This document shows, in pieces, positions 9,999 through 26,938 of a stretch of DNA of 26,938 nucleotides. Position 1 is the stretch's first letter; every line of letters starts with the position of its first letter. The position numbers and the translations under genes are program-made. Under the pieces are notes generated by a model. It did not search any database and had not been told where the DNA came from. It saw nothing but the letters and a program-made list of their open reading frames with translations. This DNA comes from Bacteroidota bacterium (lineage in GTDB: Bacteria; Bacteroidota; Rhodothermia; Rhodothermales; UBA10348). Location of the stretch: assembly GCA_004356265.1 (NCBI GenBank), contig SMXK01000067.1, forward strand, positions 1-26,938, written 5' to 3'.

Positions 9999-12422
9999 AT
10001 GTCATTTCTTTCAAAAATAGGACTTCGGAAGAGATCTGTGAGACCGGTTGGGTCAAACTTGGAAAAAGGGGATGCGTCGACGCGTCGATCCTTCAGGATT
10101 AAGATTGCGATCAAGGCCAGCATCTTGCTCACGCTTGTGGTTGCCAGCATGTTTTCTTTTCGACGGGGGAGCGATTTCGAATACGCTGTTGCTGTCGACG
10201 ATGTCTGGAGATGGGAAGACCTGATCGCACCCTATGATTTTCCTATTCTGAAAACAGACTCTGAAATTCAAGCTGACAAGGAATCTATTCGAGCCTCCAC
10301 GCTGCCCATCTTCAACGTTCCCGCAGATGTGACAGTAGCTTTTCAACAGCGACTGGATTCGCTTTCCAGCGAAATAGAAATGGCACTATCTCTTTGGACC
10401 TCGTCCGAAATCGGTCGATCCAGAGGCCGACTGGTACAGGCGAAATCGGACTCTATAGCCTACCGGGAAGCGCGTGAAATTGTAGCGTTAACATTAACGG
10501 AAGTGCAATGGAGGGATCTTCTTGAGTCATACGCTAACAGTACACCAGGGTATTCGTCCTCTTCCCGCACACGATCCAGTGCGACGCTAAATCAACAGAT
10601 CACAACACTTGTGTGGAATACCGGGACGGCTCTTCTCCGCCGAGGAGTCCTTAACATCTCAAAGGATAGCTTGTACGCTTCCCGGATTATGTCCAGAAAC
10701 CTGGCCGCCCGAAGTCAGACACCGGAAGTTGTGTCCAATCTGATTTCGATCAACACCGCCATGAGTTCGGCAAGGCTTCGATTCGATGGCAATTTCCCTG
10801 TCGACCCCGGCCGTTCGGACATTGCTATGGCCATGTTTGCGCATTCGCTCGTCCCTTCGCATCTCTACGATCGCGCCGCAACTGAGGATTTATGGAATTC
10901 ACAGGAGAGAGCTTTATCTCCAACGAAAAATGTAGTGCGTACGAGCGAAATCATTGCTCGAAAAGGAGATATTGTGACTGAAGCTATTTTGCAAAGACTC
11001 ATTTCTTTAGAAGGAGAGCAAAAAAGGCGAAATCAAAGTGCCATATCCTGGAGTCGTTTTTTCGGCCAGTTGATACTGACTGTATCCACGTACCTGATTT
11101 TTTTCCTCTTTCTGTATTTGCTGCGCAGAGACATATTTATGGATAATAAGATGATGGTACTTATCACCATCTTATTTCTGGCCATCATGGGGTCGTTCGC
11201 ATTTGCACTCCGGTATGCGTTGTTGGATATGTACGTTGTTCCTGTGGCCATCGTTGCCATATTGCTGACAGTGATTTTCGACTCGCGGGTGGGCATATTC
11301 GCGACCCTTACCATGGCGCTTATGGGCAGTCACCTGCTGGACTATGACTTCGCCTATATGTATGCCACGTTATTTGCCTGTACCGTGGGTATTTTCAGCG
11401 TCCGAGATATTCGTAACCGAGGTCAGTTCTTTATCAGCGCCGGTCTGGTTCTGACTGGTTACCTGGCCATCCTGGCAGCCACCTATTTGTTGCAGAATAA
11501 GCCTCTCGACAGACTCACTTACGAGATGATGTTTGTAGCATTTAACTCGGCCTTGCTTCTGATGGCTTATCCACTCTTGTGGGGATTCGAGCGCGTTTTT
11601 AATATCACAACCGACCTTACACTTCTTGAGTTGTCAGATACGAATTCGCCGTTGTTGAAAGAGATGAGCATGAACGCTCCAGGTACGTTTAATCACGTGC
11701 TGCAGGTGGCCAATCTGGCCGAAGCCGCGGCGGCGAGCATTGGCGCAAACGCGCTACTGGCGCGGGTTGGCGCATTGTACCATGATATCGGCAAATCCGG
11801 AAAGTCTGAATATTTTGTTGAGAACCAGGCCGGGATGGATAATCCACATGATCATCTCAGGCCCAGCATGAGTGCGTTGATCATTGCCAACCACGTAAAA
11901 GAAGGACTCGAAGTCGCCCGTAAAAACAGAATTCCGCAGGCCGTTCAGGACTTCATTCCAATGCATCACGGTACGACTCGCATAGAGTACTTTTATCAGC
12001 GGGCTCTTGCGCAGCACCAGCCAAAAGAGCCGGAAGTCCAGGAGTCAGAATTCAGATATCCAGGTCCGAAGCCAAACACGGCAGAGACGGCGATCCTGAT
12101 GCTTGCTGACGCGGTGGAAGCCGCGGCGCGTGCCCTGGATAAACCGTCCCACAAGCGTTTAGAGTCACTGGTCGGGTCCATTTTACAGGCCAAAATGGAT
12201 GACGGTCAGCTCGATGAATGCTCTTTAACGTTTGCAAACCTGAAGAAAATAAAGGCGACTTTTTTGACGGTTCTGATGGGCGTTTATCATGTCAGGGTAA
12301 AATATCCAGGTGATGTTGATCAAGAACGTACTGACGACACGGACGGCAAGAACAATGGAAAGTCCCGAGCAGGAAAATCTAATACGTCAGGAGGGGATTT
12401 GCTGACGGAGGCGCTCAATTGA
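9999..12422 (+). CDS. pgpH: PgpH-like 7TM-HD phosphohydrolase (probable cyclic-di-AMP phosphodiesterase)
   Basis: N-terminal TM, large extracytoplasmic domain (APYDFPI, KGDIVT), 7 TM helices and an HD domain with metal ligands TFNH, YHDIGK, IANH, MHHGT and LADAVEA. Start moved from 9960 to ATG 9999 to avoid overlap with the symporter. Confidence 0.85.
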   Translation: MSFLSKIGLRKRSVRPVGSNLEKGDASTRRSFRIKIAIKASILLTLVVASMFSFRRGSDFEYAVAVDDVWRWEDLIAPYDFPILKTDSEIQADKESIRASTLPIFNVPADVTVAFQQRLDSLSSEIEMALSLWTSSEIGRSRGRLVQAKSDSIAYREAREIVALTLTEVQWRDLLESYANSTPGYSSSSRTRSSATLNQQITTLVWNTGTALLRRGVLNISKDSLYASRIMSRNLAARSQTPEVVSNLISINTAMSSARLRFDGNFPVDPGRSDIAMAMFAHSLVPSHLYDRAATEDLWNSQERALSPTKNVVRTSEIIARKGDIVTEAILQRLISLEGEQKRRNQSAISWSRFFGQLILTVSTYLIFFLFLYLLRRDIFMDNKMMVLITILFLAIMGSFAFALRYALLDMYVVPVAIVAILLTVIFDSRVGIFATLTMALMGSHLLDYDFAYMYATLFACTVGIFSVRDIRNRGQFFISAGLVLTGYLAILAATYLLQNKPLDRLTYEMMFVAFNSALLLMAYPLLWGFERVFNITTDLTLLELSDTNSPLLKEMSMNAPGTFNHVLQVANLAEAAAASIGANALLARVGALYHDIGKSGKSEYFVENQAGMDNPHDHLRPSMSALIIANHVKEGLEVARKNRIPQAVQDFIPMHHGTTRIEYFYQRALAQHQPKEPEVQESEFRYPGPKPNTAETAILMLADAVEAAARALDKPSHKRLESLVGSILQAKMDDGQLDECSLTFANLKKIKATFLTVLMGVYHVRVKYPGDVDQERTDDTDGKNNGKSRAGKSNTSGGDLLTEALN

Positions 12423-13307
12423 CGATTCAGCTACACTGATTTTTATCGGATAGTGCCGAATCGACTTAGGAATTACAGATCTGAGCTGTTTTTCAGCTGC
12501 TTCCGTATACAAAATAAGGTCACATTGTCGCAACAGAGGTGTCACATGTTCATTGCCATTATCTATCGAAACAGCTAACACCTGACCACTGAACCTTGTC
12601 TGATTTCTAAGTTCTGACGTAAGTGGACCGATGGCGTCAGCATATCGGGTTACAATTCCCAGCGTTTCTCGTTCGAGTAGCCTCGAGACATGCCCTAACG
12701 ATCCCGAGTCCAATTCTGTCAGCAGACCGATTACGTCTGCTCGGGGCGCCGTCGCCAGAACACTCCGGACTTCCCTGAAAGGTACCAGGACGAAATCGGC
12801 ATCCGAGTGTTTGACGAGTTTCGGAAGCGTAGTCGGCGTGATGTCCTTCTGAATGAGAGTCGAAAGTTGTTGAGCGCATGATTGCGCCCACTCTCTGTAT
12901 GTCCCAGCCGCGACAATTTTGTATGGATATTCCTCCGTTTCGAGCAGGGACATCTGCTCCTGAATAAGATAGTCGATATCCGCTTCGCTGAGCCCAAGAC
13001 CTATTAATTGTTGCAGAGAATCGCGAACGAGAGCAGCACCCTGTTCCATGCTTTCGGATTTCGCTGGTGGCGCGAATTCCGTAACGACGTACCCGCGGCC
13101 AGCGTGCGCTTTAGCATACCCGTCTCTCTCCAGATTTCGATAAGATTTGCGGACGGTGTGGAAAGAAATATCCAGTTGCTCCGCAAGAGCACGCGTAGAC
13201 GGAAGAATCTCGCCAACCCGGTAGTGTCCGTTCGCTATCAGAAATCGAATCCGGCTCTCGAGCTGCGTATGCAACGGAATCTCTGAATCTCTGTTTATCT
13301 CAATCAT
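12387..13307 (-). CDS. GntR-family transcriptional regulator with an extended alpha/beta C-terminal domain, resembling the PlmA subfamily
   Basis: GntR wHTH (SEIPLHTQL..IRFLI...LPSTRALAEQL.ISFHTVRKSYRNLERDGY...AGRGYVV) followed by about 200 aa of alpha/beta domain. ATG at 13307 chosen over TTG 13310. Confidence 0.88.
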   Translation of the reverse strand: MIEINRDSEIPLHTQLESRIRFLIANGHYRVGEILPSTRALAEQLDISFHTVRKSYRNLERDGYAKAHAGRGYVVTEFAPPAKSESMEQGAALVRDSLQQLIGLGLSEADIDYLIQEQMSLLETEEYPYKIVAAGTYREWAQSCAQQLSTLIQKDITPTTLPKLVKHSDADFVLVPFREVRSVLATAPRADVIGLLTELDSGSLGHVSRLLERETLGIVTRYADAIGPLTSELRNQTRFSGQVLAVSIDNGNEHVTPLLRQCDLILYTEAAEKQLRSVIPKSIRHYPIKISVAESSIERLRQQIPS

Positions 13308-13782
13308 CAAGTTGCTGCTTCATATCTCCCAGCGCTTCCCGGAGATGTTCGATCAGATCCTGTTTCTCCGGCCATTCCGAAAGAAATATTTTATAGAACT
13401 CGTGGCCGAGAGTCAAGCGAATCTGATTTCCATCAGATTGCATGTCGAGAAGCCTGAACCATCGAATTTTTCCGGAAGGTGACGCGGCGGAAACCAGTGA
13501 CCGAATACCGACGTCACCATCTCTGAAATGCATCTCAACCAGTACATCTCTGATGCGGATGTATGTCCATGCTGCGGCTATTGATAATCCTGCCGGAAAT
13601 CCGAAATACAGATACCCGATTACCGATTGCCCCTGTAGAACCGACGATAACCCTAAAATCATAACCGGGATCATACACACACCCAGCGGGAGAGCCATTC
13701 GGGACGAGAAAACATGGGCCCTGGATCTGAACGCCGGATGATGATCCGATCGATATTCAACTATCCTCGTGCCAGTTCTCAT
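13300..13782 (-). CDS. Hypothetical membrane protein (two TM helices + small soluble C-terminal domain)
   Basis: ATG 13782 lies 4 nt after the upstream stop, and its own stop overlaps the GntR start (ATGATTGA). Two hydrophobic stretches. The track's 13881 start overlaps the upstream gene and was not used. Confidence 0.7.
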   Translation of the reverse strand: MRTGTRIVEYRSDHHPAFRSRAHVFSSRMALPLGVCMIPVMILGLSSVLQGQSVIGYLYFGFPAGLSIAAAWTYIRIRDVLVEMHFRDGDVGIRSLVSAASPSGKIRWFRLLDMQSDGNQIRLTLGHEFYKIFLSEWPEKQDLIEHLREALGDMKQQLDD

Positions 13783-13786
13783 AATC

Positions 13787-14806
13787 CTATTTAGACCATT
13801 TTGTACCGAAGGCTCGCGGAATCGGCAAACTTGCAACAGTCGCCAGTCCAGCCGGTCCGGCTGCGACCGACGGAATGCCATTGATCAACGTCGCGACTGT
13901 GGCCGTATCGCCGAAAATACCACCCCGGACAACGAGATCCACTGGTGGGTCCCCTTGTACGAGAACAGCGTCTCTTGGATCTTCTGCACCAACGAACATC
14001 TTCAGATCGAGAGAGATCACGCATGTATCACCGATAAATGCTTTTGCATAGTGGTGAATTCCAGCAACTTGTCCCTCCTCGACGGTCAGAAATGGCGTAA
14101 CAACCTTCTTGGGAGAAATGACGCAGTCGAGCGTTTCATTGAGCCGCTCGATGGGCCAATTTAGCCCGTCAGCGATCAGCTTCACGGATTCAACAAGACC
14201 AATATGCCCGAATTGTCCTGTTGCTTTTTTCTCTTCAAATGCCTCGACAGAGAGGCCGGCTCCAATCTTCAGCTGCAATGGCAATCGTCGGAGACTGGCA
14301 TTTACTTCGCGATTGACCTCAATTGAAGTCACCTCGTTACAAACTCCTGTTGCCATGAGTGCGAGCGCATCCATCGCGTAACCAGGATTTACGCCGGTTC
14401 CCAGCAACGTCACCCCATGTTTTTTTGCCGCCTCGTCGAGGCGCACCGAAATTTCGGGATGTCGGTCGAAGGGGTACGACAACTCTTCCGTTGACGAAAC
14501 AACGTTCGCGCCGTACTCAGCGCATAACAAAAGTTGATCATACATGCTGGCTAGAAAGGACGAGGTCGTATGCACCACGACGTCCGGCCTCGCGTTTTCA
14601 AGAACAGCGCGAGCATCAGAGCCCACAATTACGCCCGTTTTTTGCTCCAGGCCGAGAATTTCAGAGACGTCCTTGCCGACCTTCTCGGGATCAATGTCAA
14701 TGGCGCCTACGAGTTCGATCGATTTATTTTTAGAAAGAACAGTCCGCAAACACGATTGACCGATTGGACCAATTCCGAATTGAACAACTTTAAGCCGGGT
14801 TGACAT
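13787..14806 (-). CDS. NAD(P)-dependent amine dehydrogenase family protein (2,4-diaminopentanoate dehydrogenase-like; often labelled dihydrodipicolinate reductase)
   Basis: Rossmann GIGPIG...AIDID, NVVSSTEELSYP, GTGVNPGY.MD, GHIGLVES and GGIFGDTAT are motifs of the Ord/native amine dehydrogenase family. Confidence 0.8.
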   Translation of the reverse strand: MSTRLKVVQFGIGPIGQSCLRTVLSKNKSIELVGAIDIDPEKVGKDVSEILGLEQKTGVIVGSDARAVLENARPDVVVHTTSSFLASMYDQLLLCAEYGANVVSSTEELSYPFDRHPEISVRLDEAAKKHGVTLLGTGVNPGYAMDALALMATGVCNEVTSIEVNREVNASLRRLPLQLKIGAGLSVEAFEEKKATGQFGHIGLVESVKLIADGLNWPIERLNETLDCVISPKKVVTPFLTVEEGQVAGIHHYAKAFIGDTCVISLDLKMFVGAEDPRDAVLVQGDPPVDLVVRGGIFGDTATVATLINGIPSVAAGPAGLATVASLPIPRAFGTKWSK

Positions 14807-14847
14807 TTATACAGATAACGTAAGACTGATGAAAGCGAAACATGGAT

Positions 14848-14865
14848 TCAGATACTGGTATCTGA
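14848..14865. promoter_or_regulatory. Perfect 8-2-8 inverted repeat TCAGATAC-TG-GTATCTGA spanning the pruA stop codon; function unknown
   Basis: The palindrome is read directly from the sequence; the regulatory role is inferred only. Confidence 0.3.
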
Positions 14866-16497
14866 CGGATCGTTCTCTAGAAACGGGTAACTGAAATGGT
14901 GCGGTGGATCAAAGGTCTCTTTTATCGTACGCGCTGACGTCCACCTGATCAGATTCAGATAGGAACCGGCCTTGTCGTTCGTTCCAGAGGCGCGTGCACC
15001 ACCGAATGGCTGTTGACCGACTACAGCTCCCGAAGGTTTATCGTTGATGTAGAAATTGCCGGCGTTGTCTGTCAGGCGCTTCGTAACAGCCCTGATTACC
15101 TCTCGATCTCTCGCAAATAACGCTCCGGTCAGGGCGAATTTAGATGTTGCATCCAGAATATCTACCGTATCATCGAATTTATTGTCGTCGTACACATGTA
15201 TCGTCACGACCGGCCCGAATATTTCTTCACACATTGACCGGTAAGATGGATCATCGACCAGAATAACTGTCGGTTCGATAAAATACCCTTCTTCATCAGA
15301 GTAATTGCCACCATGAATTATTTCGACGCCCTCCGCCGTCCTGGCGTGATCGATATACCCTGAAATGCTGTCGAAGGCTTTTTTATCTATGACGGCATTG
15401 ACGAAGTGGGAGAAGTCCTCCACGGGACCCATTGTGATTTCTGACAGCTGTGACAACATTTCGTCACGAACAACATTCCACAGTGAGGACGGGATGTAGA
15501 CTCTGGACGCGGCCGAACACTTCTGGCCCTGATATTCAAACGCCCCACGTACAATCGCTGTCGCCAAAGCGACAGGGTCCGCAGACGGATGAGCCATAAT
15601 GAAGTCTTTTCCTCCCGTTTCGCCGACCAGGCGTGGATAAGTTTTGTACGTACCCAGGTTTCTGGCGACTTCAGACCACATGAACTGAAATGTTGGCGTG
15701 GAGCCGGTAAAGTGTAATCCGGTGAAGTCTTTAGAGGCGAAGACATGTTTGCCAACTTCCGATCCACGACCCGGGATGATGTTTATCACTCCGTCGGGAA
15801 GTCCGGCTTCTTCGAGCATTTTGTAGATATACCATGACGACAAATTCGACGTCGATCCTGGCTTCCAGAGCACCGTGTTACCCATCATCGCTGGTGCTGA
15901 ACATAAGTTTCCGGCGATCGACGTGAAATTGAATGGTGTGACAGCAAATACAAATCCTTCGAGAGCTCGATACTGCAGTCGATTCCAGACTCCTGGCGAA
16001 CTTATGGGCTGGTGCGCATAGATTTGCTCCATGAAATGGACGTTGAACCTGAAAAAGTCAATCAGTTCACAGGCAGCGTCGATTTCAGCTTGATGCGGGT
16101 TTTTACTCTGCCCCAGCATGGTGGCCGCATTTATCGTATCTCGCCAGGGTCCGGCGAGCAGGTCAGCTGCTTTGAGAAATATTGCGGCGCGTTCGGTCCA
16201 TGGCATGTGCATCCAGTCGTGCCGGGCTTTCATGGCGGCATCAATTGCTGACTTTAACTCGACTTCACCACACTGGTGGGCCTTTGCCAGTACCCGGGAG
16301 TGTTCGTGTGGCGCTACTACATCAAGGGTCCTGCCCGTTCGGATTTCCTGGCCTCCGATTACGGCCGGAATGTCAATCGTTTCCGAGCGCATCTGAAGAA
16401 GTCGTTTCCTGAGCGAGGCTCTTTCAGGTGATCCTGGTGCGTACGATTTAACCGGTTCATTGACCGGTATTGGAGTCGACGACGTCAAATTATTCAT
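14848..16497 (-). CDS. pruA: L-glutamate gamma-semialdehyde (P5C) dehydrogenase, monofunctional
   Basis: NEPVKSYAPGSPER, QAEIDAACELIDFFRFN, PFNFTSI, ETGGKDF, catalytic GQKCSA, EEIFGPV and QQPFGGARASGTNDKAG. ATG 16497 matches the usual N-terminus. TTG 16641, with a closely spaced AAGGAG, is a less likely alternative. Confidence 0.96.
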   Translation of the reverse strand: MNNLTSSTPIPVNEPVKSYAPGSPERASLRKRLLQMRSETIDIPAVIGGQEIRTGRTLDVVAPHEHSRVLAKAHQCGEVELKSAIDAAMKARHDWMHMPWTERAAIFLKAADLLAGPWRDTINAATMLGQSKNPHQAEIDAACELIDFFRFNVHFMEQIYAHQPISSPGVWNRLQYRALEGFVFAVTPFNFTSIAGNLCSAPAMMGNTVLWKPGSTSNLSSWYIYKMLEEAGLPDGVINIIPGRGSEVGKHVFASKDFTGLHFTGSTPTFQFMWSEVARNLGTYKTYPRLVGETGGKDFIMAHPSADPVALATAIVRGAFEYQGQKCSAASRVYIPSSLWNVVRDEMLSQLSEITMGPVEDFSHFVNAVIDKKAFDSISGYIDHARTAEGVEIIHGGNYSDEEGYFIEPTVILVDDPSYRSMCEEIFGPVVTIHVYDDNKFDDTVDILDATSKFALTGALFARDREVIRAVTKRLTDNAGNFYINDKPSGAVVGQQPFGGARASGTNDKAGSYLNLIRWTSARTIKETFDPPHHFSYPFLENDPSDTSI

Positions 16498-24033: not shown

Positions 24034-26938
24034 TTGATTTGTGGTCAATCGATCCCAGACAAACGGTTTCTGCGTACGTTGAAGAGTATCATCGGAGTTC
24101 TATCGATTCTGGTTACGATCACCATGGTCGGCGACCTGCGTGCACAAATCTCTGAGGGGAAGAAGGCGCCGAGCCAATCCAACATCGACAGCTTCCCGTC
24201 CAGAATTGATACACTCGTTGTTCAGGGCCAAGGTCCGTTCTTAATCCACCCGTTTCTGCTAGAAAATACGATCATCGTTTACATCGATCAGAAGCGCGTG
24301 GCGCGTGAAGAATTCGAACTCGACTTGCTCAACGGCCTGATCACATTTATAAATCGCGTCGTCCCGCCGTCAGCCCTGTTTGTAGTACAATACAGATACA
24401 TTCCACTTGATCTTGCATCCAGCTACAGAATCTGGCCGTTGAGGATTAACAACACCGAAATGCCAGACTCGTCACCGATACGTTCGGCGAGAGCATCGGA
24501 TCTAAGCTTTTCGGTACCAACAAGAAGCAACCTCCGCTCCAGCGGTTCCATTACCCGCGGAGTATCGACAGGGACGGGCCAATCCGCAGGGATAGAATCG
24601 GGGCTTCGGGTTCAGGTGGAAGGTGAAATTACGGAAGGCATTTATCTGCAGGCAGCGTTAACGGACGAGAATACGCCGATTCTGCCGGAAGGCACTACCA
24701 GACGGATCAATGAATTTGATCGCATATTTATCAAGCTGCAGTCGCAATCGGGCACAGTTCAATTGGGTGATTTTGACGCCCGGGTAGATGGTGGATATTA
24801 TGGTCGCCTCCGTCGAAAACAGCAGGGTGTTTCCGTTAAAGCCAATATTCCGGCGTCCGGGTCGATCTTTAATGGTGCAAACATTCAAACTTCCGGCTCT
24901 ATATCCCGGGGGATATTTCGGTCCCAACAGGTTCAAGCGATCGATCGCATTCAAGGACCATACCGGCTTGAAGGCGTGAATGGTGAACGATTTATCATTG
25001 TGATTCCCGCATCTGAATCCGTGTTCATCAATGGAGTTCGTTTAGTCCGCGGCGACCGAAATGACTATGTGGTGGACTATGAAACCGGTGAAATAACGTT
25101 TACCCCATCTCAGATCATCAGTGCCGATCTCAGGATTACAGTGGAATTTGAATACACCACCAGCCAGTTTACCAGAACCATGTTCACGGCCAGTGGGGAT
25201 ACACATTTCGGCGGAATTTCTGATGGAGGCAGTCGTCTGACCCTTGGCGCGACGGTTTTGCGTGAGTCGGACAGCAAGGCTTTCGGAAGTGAATTCGGTC
25301 TCAGTGCTGAAGACATTTCTATCATTGAAGCTGCAGGGGACGGCCTTGCGTTTCGATCGGGAGCGATTGCAGTATTTTTTAATCCAGAGGCAACCTATAC
25401 GCAGTATCTCATTGAGCAGCGCGAAACCATCTCGGCCGATACCGTCAACATTTTCGTAGCCGTCAGTACAACACCACCGGATACGGCTACAGTTTATCGC
25501 GTCTCGTTTTCGAGATTGGGAGAGAGGCGGGGCAGCTACATTCGAACAGGGCTTGTCACTAATGGAATAGCCTATGAATGGGTCGGAATCGGCCAGGGAG
25601 AATACGAACCGATTCAATTGCTGCCCACGCCAGTATTGAATCAGATTATCGATTTCAGGGCGCGGGTGGTTATTTCAAGTGGATTTTCACTTTCTGCAGA
25701 ACTCGCGTCATCGCTGCAGGATCTGAATCGAATCTCGGAACTGGATGATCAAAACAACGCAGGGGAGGCGTATCGGATTGAGGCTAATTACTCGACGGGG
25801 AAATCAAAGTCCATCGGCTTGAATATTTTTCAGCGATATCGGTCTTCGTCTTTCCGAACGTTCAGTCGATCGCGCTCTATTGAATTTGCACGTGACTGGA
25901 ATCTTGTTGGAAGGATCGTAGATCCAACCGGAGGGATTTCGGGTGCGCAGTCGGAAAGAGAGTCTGACGCGAATGTTTTCTGGCACTGGACCGATTCATC
26001 TCGTGTCGAGGCGTCCTTGTCACATCTCAAGCTGGGCTCAACGTTTGAAGGACTCCGGGCAGGAGGTGGTTTCAAGTTATTCAGATCAGAATCCACTTTC
26101 GCTGATTATTCCATCAGCTTTCTCGAGACCGACGACTTTCTCGCAGACGAATCCGGTAGCTGGATCAGGCAAAAAGGTCGAATTTCGTATGGAATAAAAA
26201 AAGACAGGATAAGACCGTATTTCTCGGTCGAACATGAAGACCATCAACAAACGGAAGGGATCAATGGTGTCCTTGTGGCACCATCCACTCGGTTCATCGA
26301 TTCGCGGGGTGGTGTAGCTGTTCGGGGCCGGATTTACGAGGCGCGTTTTGAAATCAGAAACCGGCAGGAAGATTTTGTGGTTCTTAACGGTAATCGCCAA
26401 CCATACGATGCGCTGACCTTTGTCTCGTCCGGAAGTTATGACCCTGGACGACACCTCCATATCGAAGGAACCGTGGGATTAAGGTCAACTCGGGGCTCTG
26501 CCGTATCGGATATTTTAGTGCCTGCAGCAAGCAGTGACGGCAGTTTATTGATAGGACTGAACGGGCGTTGGCGTTCTGCTCCGTCTGGCTTCACTGTCAA
26601 CTGGTTGTATCAGGCTCAGTCAGAACGATCCACTGTTTTGCAGGAGATATATATAAGAACGGGGCAAGATCGGGGTGAATTTGTATGGATCGATATTAAC
26701 AATGACAGCGTCATGCAACTGGAAGAATTCATTCCCGAAACGCTGCCGAATGAAGGACAATTCATCCGATCCTATTTCCCTTCTGATGATTTCGAGGAAA
26801 TCACGACTGCTAAGGCTCGCATCAGGTTCGAGTACAGACATCCCGGGTCGCAGGGCACTGCGTCGGGTACAACATGGAACCGGTTTATACGTGGAATCGG
26901 CTCCGTCACACTTATTGATGTAGAAGAGCGGAGCCGAG
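24034..26938 (+). CDS. Large uncharacterised outer-membrane protein of Bacteroidota type with SprA-like segments; 3'-truncated and missing from the ORF track
   Basis: I translated frame +1 by hand and found no stop from 24007 to the window end. Candidate starts are TTG 24034 or 24079. Signal peptide ...SIIGVLSILVTITMVGDLRA|Q. Motifs include SGSITRG, ALTDENTPILPEGTT, QGPYRL, ESVFINGVRLVRG..NDYVVDYETGEITF and WIDINNDSVMQLEEF. Confidence 0.9.
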   Translation, partial: MICGQSIPDKRFLRTLKSIIGVLSILVTITMVGDLRAQISEGKKAPSQSNIDSFPSRIDTLVVQGQGPFLIHPFLLENTIIVYIDQKRVAREEFELDLLNGLITFINRVVPPSALFVVQYRYIPLDLASSYRIWPLRINNTEMPDSSPIRSARASDLSFSVPTRSNLRSSGSITRGVSTGTGQSAGIESGLRVQVEGEITEGIYLQAALTDENTPILPEGTTRRINEFDRIFIKLQSQSGTVQLGDFDARVDGGYYGRLRRKQQGVSVKANIPASGSIFNGANIQTSGSISRGIFRSQQVQAIDRIQGPYRLEGVNGERFIIVIPASESVFINGVRLVRGDRNDYVVDYETGEITFTPSQIISADLRITVEFEYTTSQFTRTMFTASGDTHFGGISDGGSRLTLGATVLRESDSKAFGSEFGLSAEDISIIEAAGDGLAFRSGAIAVFFNPEATYTQYLIEQRETISADTVNIFVAVSTTPPDTATVYRVSFSRLGERRGSYIRTGLVTNGIAYEWVGIGQGEYEPIQLLPTPVLNQIIDFRARVVISSGFSLSAELASSLQDLNRISELDDQNNAGEAYRIEANYSTGKSKSIGLNIFQRYRSSSFRTFSRSRSIEFARDWNLVGRIVDPTGGISGAQSERESDANVFWHWTDSSRVEASLSHLKLGSTFEGLRAGGGFKLFRSESTFADYSISFLETDDFLADESGSWIRQKGRISYGIKKDRIRPYFSVEHEDHQQTEGINGVLVAPSTRFIDSRGGVAVRGRIYEARFEIRNRQEDFVVLNGNRQPYDALTFVSSGSYDPGRHLHIEGTVGLRSTRGSAVSDILVPAASSDGSLLIGLNGRWRSAPSGFTVNWLYQAQSERSTVLQEIYIRTGQDRGEFVWIDINNDSVMQLEEFIPETLPNEGQFIRSYFPSDDFEEITTAKARIRFEYRHPGSQGTASGTTWNRFIRGIGSVTLIDVEERSR

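Follow-up and report, generated by a model that had tools for sequence, protein, structure and literature searches.

A group G1 native amine dehydrogenase kept behind pruA in Rhodothermales: a candidate NAD-dependent D-glutamate dehydrogenase

Which amine is oxidized by an amine dehydrogenase whose gene lies directly behind that of a glutamate semialdehyde dehydrogenase? The question is raised by a 26,938-nucleotide contig (GenBank SMXK01000067.1, assembly GCA_004356265.1; this whole stretch is called the window) from a Rhodothermales metagenome-assembled genome (MAG) that is 75% complete. On its minus strand, pruA (positions 14848–16497; 549 amino acids from an ATG) is followed, across a 41-bp spacer (14807–14847), by a gene for a 339-amino acid dehydrogenase (13787–14806), an arrangement already described in a reading made from the DNA letters alone (the sequence-only reading). 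That reading proposed that the enzyme deaminates an ω-amine such as the δ-amine of ornithine, or interconverts proline and Δ1-pyrroline-5-carboxylate (P5C), and so feeds PruA directly. Our analysis points, tentatively, to another substrate, and the enzyme is perhaps an NAD-dependent D-glutamate dehydrogenase acting beside PruA, not upstream of it.

PruA was assigned as a group 1 (pruA/rocA) L-glutamate γ-semialdehyde (P5C) dehydrogenase on a full-length match to the TIGR01236 equivalog model (786.9 bits; cut-off, 613.6). The spacer holds no terminator-like site, consistent with co-transcription of the two genes; scanning the locus for promoters and terminators gave matches at chance level only, and an Rfam search gave none. 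The dehydrogenase belongs to the native amine dehydrogenase (nat-AmDH) family, as had been recognized from the letters. It combines a DapB_N Rossmann domain (PF01113) with a PF19328 C-terminal domain, is 35% identical to AmDH4, and its AlphaFold model (pLDDT 92.5) has the AmDH fold, with a TM score of 0.93 to AmDH4 (6G1M) and about 0.5 to DapB structures. Both residues singled out earlier were borne out by alignment: the Glu of the SSTEEL motif is Glu107 (codon 14486–14488), which aligns with the catalytic Glu102 of AmDH4 at active-site position P3 and is invariant across 121 close homologues, and the His of the GHIG motif is His201, the equivalent of AmDH4 His197.

The 21 active-site positions (P1–P21) of PMC11164908 were mapped by sequence alignment to AmDH4 and read S82, T106, E107, G138, V139, N140, Y143, A144, R166, V168, N169, R173, L177, I181, H201, I202, G203, L268, M270, G299 and T303, in agreement with the group G1 rows of Supplementary Data 5 of that paper. 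The G1 signature comprises Arg at P9 (R166, codon 14309–14311, aligned to AmDH4 R161), Arg at P12 (R173, codon 14288–14290; Phe168 in 2,4-diaminopentanoate (2,4-DAP) dehydrogenase, Ord), His at P15 (H201) and hydrophobic residues at P10, P14, P18 and P19 (V168, I181, L268 and M270). The N/F(Y)/Q/H/Q set of group G2 at P10/P12/P14/P18/P19, retained in a true G2 locus (L074; N/F/Q/H/Q), is replaced by V/R/I/L/M, such that Asn163, Gln176, His264 and Gln266 of Ord become Val, Ile, Leu and Met. The Ord model NF040740 gave 276.4 bits, under its cut-off of 400. These residues place the enzyme among the G1 nat-AmDHs; it is neither Ord nor DapB. Across the 215 G1 loci that we surveyed (59 clusters at 60% identity, taken as lineages), Arg174, Lys180 and Asp300 were kept in 211–214, and Asp37 was nearly invariant as well; Asp37-Ile38 fits the NAD rule of PMC11164908, so that NAD is the predicted cofactor. 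A separate acidobacterial AmDH subtype (L296–L300), in which P12 is Phe and the C-terminal signature differs, was neither G1 nor typical G2.

Group G1 comprises about 1,400 modelled enzymes from bacteria and archaea, the substrates of which stayed unknown after docking, a virtual screen of 1,090 amines and a gene-context search that found no consensus context (PMC11164908). The G1 test list of that study included diaminopimelate, β-lysine, hydroxylysine, glutamine and piperidine dicarboxylate and was without glutamate, ornithine, proline and γ-aminobutyrate; G1 enzymes gave negative results with racemic diaminopimelate, β-lysine and 5-hydroxylysine. Arg P12 was read there as the binder of a negative moiety where 2,4-DAP has its methyl. 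The nat-AmDH active site is a box that the catalytic Glu shuts at one end, with P12 on its mobile lid and the positions surrounding P9 as its floor (PMC9325545).

Read against these descriptions, the pocket suggests glutamate. In 2,4-DAP the amine oxidized by Ord is the (4S) one; the long carboxylate arm rests on Arg P9 and the methyl lies close to Phe P12, and exchanging that methyl for a carboxylate, with loss of the 2-amino group, would yield glutamate. In the window enzyme the amine would be handled by Glu107, the γ-carboxylate would rest on Arg166, where Ord places the C1 carboxylate of 2,4-DAP, and the α-carboxylate would rest on Arg173, aided by Arg174 and Lys180, where Ord places the methyl. 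If the hydride face of Ord is kept, the priority swap caused by the methyl-to-carboxylate change gives an (R) centre, i.e. D-glutamate, a reading in keeping with the acquired Arg173 and with a floor that has lost polar residues. The conserved R166 and R173/R174/K180 would thus make two cationic sites on either side of the catalytic Glu. The predicted reaction is D-glutamate + NAD+ + H2O ⇌ 2-oxoglutarate + NH4+ + NADH.

Gene neighbourhoods of G1 in other lineages also pointed toward D-amino acids, genes of this class (D-class) adjoining G1 in 11 of the 59 lineages. In four Balneolaceae-like genomes (a sister family in the class), a D-amino acid transaminase gene lies about 40 bp from G1, with a D-aminoacylase-like gene in three; the transaminase carries the Tyr and RxH motif, and its best model is TIGR01121, at 258–264 bits just under the cut-off of 277. 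D-Glutamate is the usual product of D-amino acid transaminases, and in such a pair the dehydrogenase would regenerate 2-oxoglutarate. In six other Balneolaceae-like genomes, G1 belongs to a SusCD locus that also carries β-lactamase-like, S13, NlpC/P60 or amidase genes. In a Bathyarchaeia MAG the gene for D-glutamate cyclase (PF14336) overlaps G1, in another archaeon the two converge, an acidobacterial locus has the order lysA, class IV aminotransferase, G1, NlpC/P60 and an epimerase-like gene, and Haloarcula has hutU, amidohydrolase, G1 and D-aminoacylase. A plasmid of Halostagnicola larsenii (L216) carries a peptide ABC transporter, G1, NlpC/P60, dipeptide epimerase and serine hydrolase, a cluster resembling peptidoglycan-peptide recycling, here in an archaeon. 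The clusters of Acidobacteriota, Balneolaceae-like genomes and Halostagnicola include, variously, NlpC/P60, Ala-Glu epimerase-like, LD-carboxypeptidase, S13 peptidase or amidase genes. A 58%-identical homologue from another class, nested within the pruA-linked clade, heads a cluster of racemase, GNAT-like, OSBS/NSAR and M20 genes. The source genome of the window itself encodes D-aminoacylase-like, NlpC/P60, S13 and enolase-family homologues.

For a held-out test, the reference set was frozen and the prediction noted beforehand, and 50 new G1 loci, mostly from Acidobacteriota, were collected. D-class genes occurred in 6 of the 50 loci (459 kb) and not at all in 681 kb of control sequence from the same genomes, a nominal p of 0.004 that is overstated because the matches come from about three or four lineages, two of which had already been seen. 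Proline dehydrogenase (PRODH) occurred at 3 held-out loci against none in the control (nominal p 0.065, likewise overstated, as only 2 lineages contribute); PRODH lies beside G1 in two Acidobacteriota lineages. Post hoc, five related loci were seen to carry a D-serine-dehydratase-like gene, and one a cluster of MurQ-like, DUF819 and LD-carboxypeptidase genes.

Several further points weigh against D-glutamate. The in-sample neighbour count is circular, since the reference set was drawn from contexts already seen, and the majority of G1 loci have no informative neighbour. Other neighbours are neutral or would yield L-glutamate, namely pruA, PRODH, hydantoinase B/oxoprolinase (L154, L248) and TAXI-TRAP operons (L223, L246), and class III aminotransferases lie beside G1 in 11 lineages. 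The window itself holds no pointer to D-amino acids. The pocket reading was made by alignment to AmDH4 and from published descriptions, and with two arginines present glutamate could lie reversed in the pocket, which would give the L-enantiomer. Lastly, a few G1 enzymes, two of them clearly, turned over 2-amino-4-oxopentanoate in vitro (PMC11164908). Six unbiased context look-ups (P0121, P0122, P0124, P0126, P0144 and P0291) returned no informative neighbour. Pairs of G1 with a HemL-like class III aminotransferase were seen in both archaea and bacteria (L145, L069, L217, L270, L281 and L302–L304), and a search of Halobacteria gave three new loci only, each beside a class III aminotransferase.

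How firmly the gene is tied to pruA was examined in 61 relatives (G000–G060), 47 of which have a homologue of the dehydrogenase. By coordinates, 40 of these 47 carry it directly behind pruA, three are cut by a contig end but keep it ahead of the next two genes of the window, and four are unlinked. Those two genes encode a membrane/PH-like hypothetical protein (hyp; 160 amino acids, 13300–13782, minus strand), which begins 4 bp past the dehydrogenase stop and has no Pfam match, and a GntR regulator (12387–13307, minus strand) overlapping the end of hyp by 8 bp. Within the family of the window, the order pruA, AmDH, hyp, GntR was found wherever the DNA reaches, with pruA adjoining in 30 of 30. 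The synteny that the sequence-only reading left to be quantified is thus conserved within Rhodothermales, and the pairing is not chance. The atypical C-terminal domain of the regulator resembles PF27163 (YmtS_Ross) clusters.

All pruA-linked copies form one clade (SH-aLRT 98, in a quick IQ-TREE run with SH-aLRT support only, from which no direction of donation is claimed), and a true P5C dehydrogenase lies beside G1 only in Rhodothermales (including L247, with the same block) and nowhere else among the 215 loci. The link is therefore one event, long retained; at least eight families have kept the dehydrogenase behind pruA. It entered Rhodothermales once, behind pruA, where it would form part of a glutamate-family catabolic unit: a single transcript would send to 2-oxoglutarate both the L-glutamate that PruA derives from proline and D-glutamate supplied by cell-wall peptides or by D-transamination. 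Two relatives carry a second or relocated pruA, 78–79% identical to that of the window, in another context and with no dehydrogenase (G006, C3:1851143-1852786, L200; G016, C245, L172).

The same block supplies an argument for another D-amino acid or carboxylated amine as substrate (D-aspartate, D-2-aminoadipate, D-alanine, the α-carbon of D-ornithine or D-lysine, or a broad range); its place behind pruA would then be a matter of inherited gene order, without a shared pathway. In at least nine genomes without the dehydrogenase in its slot pruA directly abuts hyp, in two the slot is occupied by a different gene family, and the unrelated flanking genes lolCE, moaE, purC, 7TM-HD, SSF and ligA accompany the pruA–hyp(–GntR) block whether or not the dehydrogenase is present; in G057, G042 and L046, close Rhodothermales homologues lie away from pruA. 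G1 also has D-class neighbours unrelated to glutamate (proline racemase family and D-serine dehydratase-like), and a second amine could be bound by Asp300, which is conserved. Against this, D-glutamate is common to the neighbours of highest specificity (D-glutamate cyclase, D-transaminase, the γ-D-glutamyl peptidase family and the Ala-Glu epimerase-like gene), racemic diaminopimelate gave a negative result with G1 enzymes, and the gene has kept its place in those eight or more families. We regard such a substrate as unlikely, though deserving of real weight.

The route proposed from the letters, in which deamination of the ornithine δ-amine or proline/P5C interconversion hands glutamate semialdehyde/P5C to PruA and replaces ornithine aminotransferase (RocD), draws on the direct, co-oriented adjacency, on the PRODH genes near G1, on published docking in which ω-amines met the catalytic Glu and the carboxylate lay by the two arginines, and on the fact that neither ornithine nor proline was on the G1 test list. 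The suspected lack of RocD was real, with matches over the cut-off in only 2 of the 61 relatives, but RocD was equally absent with and without the dehydrogenase, not the complementary distribution that a replacement predicts. The genes scanned in the window include no aminomutase, ortAB, ornithine aminotransferase or PRODH, as had been noted; the absence of PRODH is uninformative, because a monofunctional PRODH is encoded elsewhere in the same genome (C24), and with PRODH in 56 of the 61 relatives the supply of PruA is already explained. At least seven linked genomes that are 95–99% complete (G003, G004, G015, G021, G023, G046 and G053) have no arginase-family gene, other ornithine sources not having been searched; the sole ureohydrolase of the source genome looks agmatinase-like by eye, and ornithine cyclodeaminase-family genes, an alternative route, are present. 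ProC was not found in 22 of 34 genomes of the window's family, a point in favour of the proposed route, yet it is present in G1-bearing genomes of all other families, and G010 lacks both ProC and the dehydrogenase, which leaves the enzyme a weak candidate for a ProC substitute. Tests of G1 enzymes with β-lysine and 5-hydroxylysine were negative, the polar residues at the end of the Ord pocket that holds the 2-amino acid part are swapped for hydrophobic ones, and the pruA–hyp–GntR block persists without the dehydrogenase. In sum, the linkage stood, as a single event in one clade, and neither repeated linkage to P5C dehydrogenase nor a distribution complementary to RocD together with an ornithine source was found; the route appears improbable. 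If it were true instead, it would amount to a transaminase-free ornithine pathway.

A dehydrogenase for the glutamate skeleton with another stereo- or regiochemistry, i.e. an L-glutamate dehydrogenase acting on the product of PruA or a β-glutamate dehydrogenase, is in our view equally doubtful. Two arginines suit any diacid, and it would account for the neighbours linked to glutamate production or import (pruA, PRODH, hydantoinase B/oxoprolinase, TAXI-TRAP, hutU and class III aminotransferases); for an L-glutamate dehydrogenase beside PruA, Bacillus subtilis offers a parallel in its adjacent rocG and rocA. The source genome, however, already has a conventional Glu/Leu/Phe/Val dehydrogenase (C219), L-glutamate must bind reversed relative to the Ord substrate, none of the G1 loci examined had a confirmed aminomutase neighbour, and the D-specific neighbours are left unexplained.

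An ordinary Ord or DapB, as database names have it, is very improbable: the Pfam names, the identity to AmDH4, the two enzymes that clearly accepted 2-amino-4-oxopentanoate and the failure to find DapB in the three family genomes tested are outweighed by the NF040740 score, the missing G2 residues, the TM score to DapB, the absence of ortAB/oraSE from all linked loci, an empty search of 5 genomes for the aminomutase family PF09043 (in which no control genome matched either), and, for a DapB substitute in particular, the lack of any DapA over the cut-off in 5 family genomes, a true DapB coexisting with the enzyme in G046 and G053, and a TIGR00036 score of merely 29 bits on a G1 gene. The absence of DapA and DapB from the tested genomes of the window's family, and of ProC from 22 of 34, suggests dependence on lysine/diaminopimelate and proline, or other routes.

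The D-glutamate dehydrogenase reading bears on how Rhodothermales obtain this amino acid. MurI was over the cut-off in 1 of the 61 relatives, a genome without G1, and canonical D-amino acid transaminase was rare (3–4 strong matches); a MurL search of 5 Rhodothermales genomes was empty, with no control match. The source of peptidoglycan D-glutamate in the order is thus unexplained by MurI or the canonical transaminase. Many Rhodothermales carry a second class IV aminotransferase (e.g. L229:4271-5176:+). A role of G1 as an essential MurI substitute was not supported, at least 10 near-complete relatives having neither MurI nor the dehydrogenase, and G1 is for the same reason not a universal supplier of D-glutamate. 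A broader picture can be sketched, one that we hold with some reserve: G1 enzymes may be natural NAD-dependent D-glutamate dehydrogenases that, with a D-transaminase, would be the D-series counterpart of the L-transaminase/glutamate dehydrogenase couple and recycle cell-wall D-amino acids, and in reverse could help to supply D-glutamate in Rhodothermales. The candidate pair, D-glutamate and 2-oxoglutarate, is cheap and makes the G1 substrate question testable in one assay. If the prediction holds, it would assign a gene to an activity for which none was found in the literature searched, add a route by which marine and soil microbes turn over the D-amino acids of peptidoglycan, and provide a natural scaffold for D-amino acid production.

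Some observations lie apart from this argument. Viral contigs gave no relative, and no long start-to-stop open reading frame is listed for positions 24034–26938 of the window. Elsewhere in the source genome, C145:2371-7701 resembles, by eye, a hydroxyproline-catabolism cluster (DapA-family, aldehyde dehydrogenase, GntR, proline-racemase family and FAD oxidoreductase genes). A D-hydroxyproline role for the dehydrogenase was considered and set aside as unneeded, given the separate epimerase/oxidoreductase/deaminase-like genes of that cluster.

Four known systems were compared with the window enzyme. Published G1 nat-AmDHs (Elisee et al. 2024, PMC11164908; e.g. E1QRK4 and JGI_GEM-1986) share Glu P3, Arg P9, Arg P12 and His P15, and JGI_GEM-1986 differs over P1–P21 only at P11 and P14, where the window enzyme has Asn for Asp and Ile for Val. 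The group itself was already described, without a consensus context; new here are the conserved pruA linkage, in an operon-like block, and the D-amino acid and glutamate contexts counted across lineages. Ord and AmDH4 (G2; 6G1M, 6G1H and 7XDU) have in common with it the fold, the catalytic Glu, the distal-carboxylate Arg, the His and the NAD-type loop, whereas the window enzyme has Arg173 for Phe168, the four hydrophobic replacements, a basic RRxPxQxK lid and the extra Asp300, and its gene has no ort/ora neighbours. Both meso-diaminopimelate dehydrogenase (Ddh) and engineered D-amino acid dehydrogenases use NAD(P) to oxidize a D-centre. Ddh (8I78) is related in its Rossmann plus DapB-like architecture (TM 0.53; 14% identity), but diaminopimelate was negative on G1 enzymes, and the substrate predicted here is a C5 diacid. 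The established D-glutamate routes (MurI racemase, D-amino acid transaminase, flavin-dependent DadA and D-glutamate cyclase) concern the same metabolite. Racemase and transaminase are the confirmed D-glutamate suppliers, and an NAD(P)H-dependent D-glutamate dehydrogenase was sought in one archaeon without success (PMC4187202); a nicotinamide-dependent, reversible D-glutamate dehydrogenase with an assigned gene, absent from the literature searched, is what the G1 enzyme behind pruA may prove to be.

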